Assembly (NCBI RefSeq): GCF_053078305.1
Contig: NZ_CP166879.1
Strand: one strand, 5' to 3'
Length of the DNA: 64,000 nucleotides
Shown: piece by piece, positions 6,140 to 8,905 of the stretch
Layout: every line of letters begins with the position of its first letter
Numbering within the stretch: position 1 is the stretch's first letter
Notes under the pieces: model-generated
What the model was told of the DNA's origin: nothing
Database searches by the model: none
The model's input: only the letters and a program-made list of their open reading frames with translations
Position numbers and translations under genes: made by a program

Positions 6140-6359
6140 ATTGTACCTTTTTGATTAACCATTGGGGTGAGGGAACCCAATACGTACGACACGTCTGTTA
6201 CCTTAACATAATAACGTGCTTACCCTTTTTTCGAGCCGCCGCATGATACTGCTTTACGTTGACAATGCAATGGTTAATTTTCACGCAATCGTTAACCTGG
6301 TTTGCTTACGGACTCACAGGGCGTAAACTAGCGCCGTTTTTTTATGTGATGAGAAGAAA

Positions 6360-6605
6360 ATGACCGATCTCTTTTCCAGCCCTGACCACACACTCGACGC
6401 ACTTGGCCTGCGCTGCCCGGAACCCGTAATGATGGTGCGCAAAACAGTGCGCAATATGCAGCCAGGTGAAACGTTGCTGATTATTGCTGACGATCCGGCG
6501 ACGACCCGCGATATCCCTGGGTTTTGTACCTTTATGGAACACGAACTGGTTGCCAAAGAGACGGATGGACTGCCTTATCGTTATTTGATTCGTAAAGGCG
6601 GTTGA
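6360..6605 (+). CDS. tusA: Sulfur carrier protein TusA
   Basis: 81-aa protein with the conserved CPxP motif ([12 protein letters not shown]). Confidence 0.95.
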
Positions 6606-6706
6606 TGGGGGCAGATTGGCTTCGATGCCGCCTTTTCCCCTCACCCTAACCCTCTCCCCAGAGGAGCGAGGGGACCGATCGCGCTCAATGTTGCGATCGG
6701 TTTGCC

Positions 6707-8905
6707 TTATCTCCTGCGCAACAATCTTAACGCATTCGCTGTCACCAGCACCGTCGCACCCGTATCTGCCAGCACCGCCAGCCATAGTCCGGTCATTCCT
6801 AACAGCGTGGTGACGAGGAAGATCCCTTTCAGCCCCAGCGCAATAGTGATGTTCTGGCGGATATTGGCGTGAGTGGCGCGTGCCAGTTCAATCATTTGCA
6901 CCAGACCGCGCAGGTGGTTATGGGTTAATGCTGCGTCGGCGGTTTCCAGCGCCACGTCTGTGCCGCTGCCCATTGCAATCCCGATGGCGGCAGCTTTCAT
7001 CGCTGGCGCGTCGTTAATACCATCACCGACCATCGCCAGCGGCGCATGTTGATTCAGCTCGGTTACCGCTTTGACTTTATCTTCCGGCAATAGGCCCGCT
7101 TTAAATTCCAGCCCCAGTTCCCCGGCGATTGCCGCCGCTGCGCGTGGATTATCGCCGGTGAGGATCACTCCTTTAACCCCCAGCGCGTTCAGTTCACTGA
7201 TGGCAGTTGCAGCATCGGCGCGCAGGGTATCCTGTAACGCAATGACACCAAGCACGTCATCGTTACGTACTACCAGCACTACCGTTTGCCCGGCGCTTTC
7301 CAGTTCGTTAATTAAACCAGCAAATGCATCAGCGGGATGTTTCCCGGCAGAGCAAATCAATACGCGCTCACCGTTAACCTGCGCTTCAATGCCAGACCCG
7401 ACCAGCGCCCGCTGTGATTCGGCGGCGGGAATGGCGAGTGCAGCAACCTGTGCTTCGCGCACGATGGCCTGCGCCAGTGGATGCGTCGCGCCTTGCTCGA
7501 CCGCCGCCGCCAGTGTCAGCAGTTCAGATTCACTAATACCCGTTGCCGGATGAATCGCGGTAACGCGCGGTTTACCGACGGTCAGCGTACCGGTTTTATC
7601 AAACGCCACCTGGGTAACACGACCTAGCTGCTCCAGCGCCGCACCGCCTTTAATTAACGCCCCACGACGTGCCGCTGCTGCCAGCCCGGAGGTAATCGCC
7701 GCGGGCGTGGAGATAACTAACGCACACGGGCAGCCAATCAGCAGCAGCGTCAGGCCTTTATAAATCCACTCTTGCCAGCTGGCGGCAAACAGCAGCGGCG
7801 GCACCAGCGTTACCAGCAGGGCGACGGCCATAATCGCTGGCGTATAAATACGGCTGAAACGGTCAATAAACCGCTCAATGGGAGCGCGACGCTCTTCGGC
7901 TTCTTCGATCAGTTTCAGAATCCGGTCAATGGCGCTGGCTCCCGGTTCGGACAATACTTCCAACGTCACCAGACGGTCTACGCTGGTGGCGCCTGCAGGA
8001 ACTTTATCGCCCGTCGCACGCTCCACCGGAATGGATTCGCCGGTCAGGGCGCTTTCATCAAAACTGGCAAAGGGTGAGAGCAGTTTACCGTCGGCAGGCA
8101 AACGCCCACCCGCCGCAACTTCAATCACATCGCCAGGGCGCAGGCTGTTAATTGCCACCTCTTCACGCTCACCGTTACGCAGGCGCGTGGCGTTTTCTGG
8201 TTTCAGCGCCATTAACGCGCTGACGCCCTGACGCGCGCGGCTGGCGGCCCAACCTTCTAGTCGTTCACCAATCAAAAACAGCAGCAACACCATCGCAGCT
8301 TCAGCCGTTGCGCCAATAAACAGCGCACCAATAGCGGCTACGCTCATTAACGTTTCAATGGCGAAGTAACTGCCTGATTTGATCAGCCGTAATGCCTGAC
8401 GAGCAATCGGGTACAGCCCAACCAGCGTGGTCGCGATAAACGCCAGTTGCCCGAACGGATGATTGAACTGCTCCAGACCCCAGCTGATTGCCATCATCAC
8501 GATTAGCGTAATCAGCGGCAGATTCTCTTTCAGGCGCGATTCTTGTTGTTCTTCGGCGGCCTGTTCATCGCGTAGGGAATAGCCCGCTTTTTGCACCGCA
8601 GATTCAACCTGGGCACGGATGTCATTGTCGGCATCCACCACCAGTTTTTCGGTGGCGAACAACACCTGCACCTGATTCACGCCTGCAAGCTGGCGCACGG
8701 CGTTTTCTACCTTGCGCGCACAGGCGGCGCAGTCCATGCCGCTGACTTTCCAGCTATAGCGGGTGCCGGAGACGTTTTCAGAGAGCGTTGGCGTGCTGGA
8801 ACATGCGCCGTCGCAGCAACAGTCGTTGGCGTTCTGTACCGTGGTTAGCGGTTTGAACGCAGCAAATTGAGGGGCTTTCTTGCCGTGATTGTCAGGAGTC
8901 GACAT
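6707..8905 (-). CDS. zntA: Zn/Cd/Pb-translocating P1B-type ATPase
   Basis: 732 aa with N-terminal GMDCAAC metal-binding motif, CPC transmembrane motif, DKTGTLT phosphorylation site and GDGINDAPA hinge. Confidence 0.97.
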   Translation of the reverse strand: MSTPDNHGKKAPQFAAFKPLTTVQNANDCCCDGACSSTPTLSENVSGTRYSWKVSGMDCAACARKVENAVRQLAGVNQVQVLFATEKLVVDADNDIRAQVESAVQKAGYSLRDEQAAEEQQESRLKENLPLITLIVMMAISWGLEQFNHPFGQLAFIATTLVGLYPIARQALRLIKSGSYFAIETLMSVAAIGALFIGATAEAAMVLLLFLIGERLEGWAASRARQGVSALMALKPENATRLRNGEREEVAINSLRPGDVIEVAAGGRLPADGKLLSPFASFDESALTGESIPVERATGDKVPAGATSVDRLVTLEVLSEPGASAIDRILKLIEEAEERRAPIERFIDRFSRIYTPAIMAVALLVTLVPPLLFAASWQEWIYKGLTLLLIGCPCALVISTPAAITSGLAAAARRGALIKGGAALEQLGRVTQVAFDKTGTLTVGKPRVTAIHPATGISESELLTLAAAVEQGATHPLAQAIVREAQVAALAIPAAESQRALVGSGIEAQVNGERVLICSAGKHPADAFAGLINELESAGQTVVLVVRNDDVLGVIALQDTLRADAATAISELNALGVKGVILTGDNPRAAAAIAGELGLEFKAGLLPEDKVKAVTELNQHAPLAMVGDGINDAPAMKAAAIGIAMGSGTDVALETADAALTHNHLRGLVQMIELARATHANIRQNITIALGLKGIFLVTTLLGMTGLWLAVLADTGATVLVTANALRLLRRR

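Follow-up and report, generated by a model that had tools for sequence, protein, structure and literature searches.

Within the window, i.e. the whole stretch of 64,000 nucleotides that was analysed, the convergent E. coli genes tusA (plus strand) and zntA (minus strand) are separated by a spacer of 101 bp (6606-6706): the last base of the tusA stop codon is 6605, and the stop codon of zntA, read on the minus strand, starts at 6707. A preliminary description of this spacer had pointed to a C-rich tract and an inverted repeat, and had taken them together as a probable bidirectional terminator, in which the C-rich tract might be a small repeat element or a protein-binding site. The locus therefore raises the question of what each of these two features is, and which of them ends transcription. 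Their presence between the convergent genes is borne out by the ORF list, by the sequence itself and by an inverted-repeat search. Our analysis indicates that the spacer very probably contains a known BoxC repeat that adjoins a known overlapping bidirectional terminator hairpin (6674-6701). The features on which the argument depends are the following:

6360-6605, plus strand: tusA coding sequence (81 aa) from the ORF list; the RefSeq annotation under the BLAST match is sulfurtransferase TusA.
6594-6636, plus strand: hairpin H1, with outer arms AAAGGCGG/CCGCCTTT (6594-6601 / 6628-6635), spanning the tusA stop codon.
6637-6672, minus strand: BoxC core, orthologue of TMECO no. 16 / HPG1 no. 40, reading CCCTCGCTCCTCTGGGGAGAGGGTTAGGGTGAGGGG; type A, with a TTA loop.
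6671-6707, unstranded: region present in both transcripts (MG1655 3,608,649-3,608,685, moved over by alignment).
6673-6692, minus strand: BoxC tail, about 20 nt located 5' of the core, with the type-A consensus AAAAnnGnGCnCGnaCGGTC; the inner arm of hairpin H3 lies in it.
6674-6701, unstranded: hairpin H3, with arms ACCGATCGC (6674-6682) and GCGATCGGT (6693-6701); stem-loop of the mapped bidirectional terminator.
6707-8905, minus strand: zntA coding sequence (732 aa) from the ORF list; the RefSeq annotation under the match is the P-type ATPase ZntA.

The C-rich tract comprises a 23-mer, CCCCTCACCCTAACCCTCTCCCC (6637-6659), for which no match is expected by chance (100 shuffles), followed directly by AGAGGAGCGAGGGG (6660-6673), and the whole element is closed by the inverted repeat TCCCCTC/GAGGGGA (6636-6642 / 6668-6674). 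A BLASTN search with the spacer, which is the search for further copies of the motif that had been suggested as a check, revealed related sequences in 5,425 of the 5,426 complete E. coli genomes; the number of places per genome has a median of 16 and reaches 29. The motif has been described repeatedly under different names (BoxC, PIT, TMECO, HPG1; Bergler 1992, Bachellier 1999, Hoyne 2000/2002, Holder 2015, Kaplan 2016), and according to Holder 2015 the TMECO motif is the same as the earlier BoxC and PIT element. At this very site, TMECO no. 16 has been catalogued as CCCTCGCCCCTCTGGGGAGAGGGTTAGGGTGAGGGG at MG1655 3,608,684-3,608,719 (Holder 2015, Table 1), and HPG1 no. 40 with its midpoint at 3,608,708, at distances of 48 nt to zntA and 32 nt to tusA (Kaplan 2016). 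MG1655 coordinates were transferred to the window by subtracting them from 3,615,356, a conversion that was checked on the zntA stop codon (3,608,649 corresponds to 6707). The window copy lies at the site of TMECO no. 16 / HPG1 no. 40, is of type A with 35 of the 36 core bases identical, and shares with the BoxC family the conserved tail, the extragenic position and the multi-copy character; the suggestion of a small repeat element was thus correct. The RefSeq table carries no repeat feature at the site, which is uninformative, as REP249 is likewise absent from that table.

The alignments also delimit the repeat. In comparisons with 10 and 15 type-A copies of MG1655, the core exhibits 34 invariant columns and the tail agrees with the consensus CAAAAnCGnGCnCGnACGGT; the conservation of the tail was assessed from alignments of 15-16 MG1655 type-A copies. 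The conserved type-A unit extends about 20 nt past the core on one side, and carries a weaker extension, GAA(A/C)AGGCC.GCA, on the other. In the window it occupies roughly 6635-6692 and comprises a 36-nt core (one C-rich and two G-rich blocks) and the tail; the published size of the BoxC unit is about 56 bp. The right arm of hairpin H1 resembles the weaker extension found beside other BoxC copies. We also considered a degenerate type-B BoxC under the tusA stop codon and rejected it, as the likeness is too weak.

The element does not belong to the REP/BIME family, since no GCCGGATAAGGCG...CGCATCCGGC palindromic unit is present in 6606-6706. The two families have several features in common: both are short repeats outside genes that cluster in 3' intergenic regions and can form RNA hairpins, and REP/BIME often coincide with bidirectional terminators (78 of the 306 in the table of Harris et al. 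2026). The spacer differs in lacking a unit of the GCCGGATG type and belongs to another sequence family. The published pattern recovers all 23 BoxC copies of MG1655 at their published coordinates; they are distributed over 18 extragenic sites, between convergent (7), tandem (9) and divergent (2) gene pairs, so that the bias towards 3' ends is milder than that of REP elements. One copy lies between pstA and pstB, i.e. inside an operon. Five E. coli sites with inverted pairs of type-A and type-B BoxC have been reported (Holder 2015).

The conservation of the 23-mer across the E. coli copies and in distant bacteria exceeds what base composition would give, and could be taken to indicate a putative site for a sequence-specific protein, either a regulator or a nucleoid protein. 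We consider this reading extremely doubtful: apart from a low-probability MatP match, no known transcription-factor motif corresponds to the element (Kaplan 2016), and its copies share neither the function of the adjacent genes nor their orientation (Holder 2015). The protein-binding site envisaged in the preliminary description hence finds no support. For BoxC in general, no cellular role has been demonstrated past an association with local sequence instability.

Compared with MG1655, the spacer of the window is 98% identical and exhibits three differences, one of them within the BoxC core: a C-to-T change at position 8 of the pyrimidine block, which gives CCCTCGCTC. Owing to this change in the first block, the window copy departs from the strict TMECO (triplex) pattern CCCTCNCCC-N3-6-GGGNGAGGG-N3-GGGNGAGGG; it is, as judged from its sequence, a mutated allele of TMECO no. 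16 and not a strict TMECO. Degenerate TMECO alleles and polymorphism of the sites have been described by Holder 2015. The HPG1 G-quadruplex motif on the minus strand, which requires four tracts of three or more G separated by short loops (GGGG-AGA-GGG-TTA-GGG-TGA-GGGG), is unchanged in the window. Single strands of BoxC have been found in vitro to adopt a hairpin, an intrastrand triplex or a G-quadruplex, and the CD and NMR data on the triplex concern canonical sequences (Holder 2015). The predicted hairpin of the window allele is about 1.5-2.6 kcal/mol weaker than that of the MG1655 allele, both on the G-rich strand (-9.1 vs -10.6 kcal/mol) and on the C-rich strand (-5.6 vs -8.2 kcal/mol). 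The 74-nt segment 6628-6701 with the C-to-T allele recurs unaltered in 2,649 records, which is about one in two of the 5,426 E. coli genomes, so the "canonical" copy of MG1655 is not the majority form. Over a wider segment (6450-6860) the window shares 100% identity with E. coli O157:H7 strain TR01, as against 95.9% with K-12 strains; it does not, therefore, come from K-12.

Hairpin H3, which overlaps the tail of the repeat, is formed by a perfect 9-bp inverted repeat with a 10-nt loop, and in the hairpin and both its flanks the alignment reveals no difference between the window and MG1655. The inverted repeat had been placed almost correctly in the preliminary description: CCGATCGCG is present at 6675-6683, and its partner reads TGCGATCGG and not CGCGATCGG, i.e. 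it was one base off. The predicted RNA fold is stable on the plus strand (-20.1 kcal/mol, z = -4.15; none of 200 shuffles was as stable) and somewhat less so on the minus strand (-16.9 kcal/mol, z = -2.78). On the plus strand the stem of 9-12 bp is followed by UUUGCCUUAU, a borderline tail for which the consensus terminator scan made no call; on the minus strand it is followed by CCCCUCGC, which is not the U-tract of a canonical intrinsic terminator. The consensus promoter and terminator scan returned nothing in the entire spacer, H3 falling narrowly outside its rules for the loop and the tail.

The same hairpin (ACCGAUCGC...GCGAUCGGU) is found in a published catalogue, which supports the assignment of a bidirectional terminator to this spacer. 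The 306 overlapping bidirectional terminators that this catalogue assigns to convergent gene pairs of E. coli are given again in supplementary Table 16 of Harris et al. 2026; to judge from the layout of its columns and from the description by Wang, Ju and Liu, the catalogue presumably goes back to the SEnd-seq work of Ju et al. 2019. Entry 282 of this table covers MG1655 3,608,649-3,608,685, an overlap of 37 nt, with the sequence AAGGCAAACCGAUCGCAACAUUGAGCGCGAUCGGUCCC (-15.2 kcal/mol), a 5' flank AGAUAA and a 3' flank CCUCGCCC containing 1 U; it was seen in log and in stationary phase, and the genes named for it include zntA and tusA. When the published ends are transferred to the window, the tusA RNA ends near 6707, about 6 nt past the H3 stem (GGU-UUGCCU), and the zntA RNA ends near 6671, 3 nt past the stem, after GGUCCC and two bases into the BoxC core. 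On the zntA side, U occurs once among the 8 nt that follow the stem, and there is no U-tract. The tusA RNA carries the whole BoxC inside its 3' UTR.

Terminators of this class are described as unlike intrinsic ones: they are Rho-independent, and need a stem-loop together with head-on collisions of polymerases (Wang, Ju and Liu). The tusA-zntA terminator resembles the other members in its position between a convergent pair, its single stem-loop, the 37-nt shared region and the absence of a U-tract on one side. It differs in that its tusA side resembles an ordinary intrinsic terminator, that one arm of its stem lies within a dispersed repeat, and that its loop, with 10 nt, is long.

From these data we infer the following course of events. 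Polymerase coming from tusA would read through H1 and the whole BoxC, form H3, and stop about 6 nt later in UUUGCCU, a stop that has the appearance of intrinsic termination. Polymerase coming from zntA would form the hairpin from the other strand and come to a stop after 3 nt, at the border of the BoxC core and with no U-tract; on this side termination probably relies on the mechanism that has been proposed for the class, in which the hairpin sets the position and collision assists. As the inner arm of H3 falls within the consensus of the BoxC tail, part of the terminator stem comes from the repeat. The C-rich core is carried along as a passenger in the 3' UTR of tusA, and the BoxC core itself is not the terminator. 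The latter conclusion follows from four observations: the tusA RNA crosses the core; PIT elements, as summarised in Holder 2015, exhibited neither promoter nor terminator activity in reporter tests and left RNA polymerase unaffected; one copy sits inside an operon (pstA/pstB); and three other convergent sites have as their listed terminator a neighbouring hairpin distinct from BoxC, or a REP element. These three are ilvC/ppiC (3,959,498-531), frlR/yhfS (3,504,796-824) and fimH/gntP (4,549,917-945), where the listed bidirectional terminators lie no more than a few tens of bases from BoxC. The C-rich tract itself lies outside the hairpin and is confined to the 3' UTR of tusA, and the terminator resembles a canonical one on the tusA side only.

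It could be argued that the core nevertheless joins in termination, its G+C-rich structured DNA making the polymerase pause or blocking its way, and so making up for the U-tract that the zntA side lacks. The position of the zntA 3' end, two bases into the core, and its U-poor flank are consistent with such a role, as is the stability of the core as single-stranded DNA (-9.1 to -10.6 kcal/mol predicted; melting at 70-82 C in vitro, Holder 2015); moreover, PIT elements have been reported to block DNA polymerase in vitro (summarised in Holder 2015). We regard this reading as quite improbable, given the reported indifference of RNA polymerase to PIT elements, the passage of tusA transcripts across the core and the copy within the pst operon, to which it should be added that other terminators of the class have no such neighbour and that DMS footprinting detected no stable triplex in vivo (Holder 2015). 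A more general form of the idea would be that BoxC homes to terminator hairpins or helps to build them, its G+C-rich core standing in for the U-tract. In its favour, the tail of BoxC provides one arm of the stem at this site, the zntA RNA stops at the border of the core, and single E. coli copies look like halves of a longer composite element. At least 4 of the 7 convergent BoxC sites in MG1655, counting zntA/tusA, lie beside a listed bidirectional terminator, while for aaeR/tldD and yjdP/phnP none is found among the entries listed in Table 16, a comparison that covered tauD/hemB in part; we consider this proposal very unlikely. 

Three hairpins in succession are predicted for the spacer RNA on the tusA strand: H1 (6594-6636), the C-rich element (6637-6673) and H3 (6674-6701). 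H1 is followed on the plus strand by UUUU and has a predicted fold of -21 kcal/mol (z = -1.7), compared to -12.8 kcal/mol (z = -0.17) on the minus strand. As a terminator of tusA it was ruled out, because the tusA 3' end has been mapped some 70 nt beyond it; in terms of the published ends, H1 is read through. We likewise rejected an interpretation of the spacer as a small RNA or leader: the Rfam matches (Hrs13, ylbH) are below threshold and are carried by generic hairpins, with the Hrs13 sRNA (RF02631) scoring 19.7 bits against a gathering threshold of 52 and matching in its terminal hairpin only. The open reading frames that cross the repeat (6616-6813 on the plus strand and 6342-6785 on the minus strand) are spurious, as they run antisense through zntA or tusA.

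A succession of stable hairpins raises another possibility, namely that the mapped ends are not the true points of termination. Both RNAs could extend further and be trimmed by 3'-to-5' exonucleases, which would halt at an mRNA-stabilising hairpin, as has been proposed for REP; according to published work, REP elements act as terminators or as blocks to decay, depending on the context. The evidence from other data sets is mixed with respect to the mapping of the tusA and zntA 3' ends, which had been named as a further check. Entry 282 places them at the hairpin, and the curated Term-seq set of Adams et al. 2021, complete for its three conditions, includes no end at 3,608,5xx-3,608,7xx and never names tusA; the TERMITe supplements contain no entry for the spacer. 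Adams et al. 2021 do report a Rho-termination region at MG1655 3,607,955 on the minus strand (Rho score 2.93), which corresponds to about 7401 on the plus strand of the window, antisense within zntA, about 0.7 kb beyond the spacer on the strand of tusA. Either readthrough from tusA or an antisense promoter could be its origin, and its presence means that tusA termination may be leaky. We nonetheless judge trimming to be an unlikely explanation of the ends, as these are well defined, overlap, and are listed in two growth phases, and as the tusA end, 6 nt past a G+C-rich stem and in a U-rich tail, has the position expected of intrinsic termination.

Both the repeat and the terminator are already present in published catalogues for this exact site, and in this respect nothing here is new; as both features are known, the locus on its own matters little. 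What the analysis provides is a separation of two features that had been merged, an example of a repeat core that is carried in the 3' UTR of tusA without stopping transcription, and the documentation of a common E. coli allele as a slightly degenerate copy. The role of BoxC and the spread of the 23-mer to distant bacteria are niche questions, beyond what one locus can settle.

Comparison of E. coli strains reveals that the tusA-zntA spacer is polymorphic, with at least three structural alleles among the strains read. The junction between the hairpin and zntA has the form found in the window in 4,570 of the 5,426 genomes. In the remaining ~16%, which lack this form of the hairpin, another arrangement replaces the outer arm, and in the strains read this is a REP cluster; H3 is thus not indispensable. 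Strains E1 and UPEC_U013 possess degenerate BoxC cores, with about 170 bp of REP units in place of the outer hairpin arm, and in strain THO-008 the core is missing, the tail is kept, and REP units are accompanied by an extra reading frame of 102 codons. The tusA-zntA spacers of these alternative alleles from other E. coli strains, in which REP-type units are present, are:

L011, 240-540: alternative spacer allele with REP-type units.
L012, 240-530: alternative spacer allele with REP-type units.
L013, 240-830: alternative spacer allele with REP-type units.

Beyond E. coli, a scan of one genome per species identified the exact 23-mer in at least 120 stretches, often in multiple copies. The matches listed include Asticcacaulis, Azospirillum, Methylovirgula and Contendobacter, as well as deltaproteobacterial assemblies, a Desulfotomaculum assembly and one archaeal assembly (a metagenome bin); for matches in such bins contamination is possible. 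The flanks of the 23-mer have their own sequence in each lineage. A wide distribution of the motif has already been reported (Holder 2015).

The most elaborate arrangement was found in Pseudomonas sp. dw_612, which possesses at least 29 copies of the 23-mer. Here they form part of a composite repeat of about 190 bp, in which a conserved spacer of some 85 nt separates a triple block of type A from an inverted triple block of type B. The 23-mer constitutes the left end of the composite, and the first ~20 nt of the internal spacer match the E. coli BoxC tail (CTCGGTCAGTCCCCTCGCCCC). Judging by this resemblance, the single BoxC copies of E. coli may be half-units of a composite element; we regard the composite architecture as a lead rather than a result. 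With an inverted related block at its far end, the dw_612 composite is reminiscent of MITEs (ERIC/IRU), whereas the E. coli copy is a single half-unit, and the likeness, drawn from the architecture of the sequence, is a candidate one only.

Two minor observations concern hairpins in the vicinity of the elements discussed above. A conserved second hairpin within the BoxC tail is a candidate only: in several copies ACCGT could pair to ACGGT, or GACTG to CAGTC, at comparable places, in an outer region that aligns poorly. On the tusA strand at 6320-6345, in the divergent yhhQ/tusA region and with no same-strand gene upstream to account for it, we found a terminator-like hairpin, GGCGTAAACTAGCGCC followed by GTTTTTTTAT, which stops some 15 nt before the start codon of tusA.
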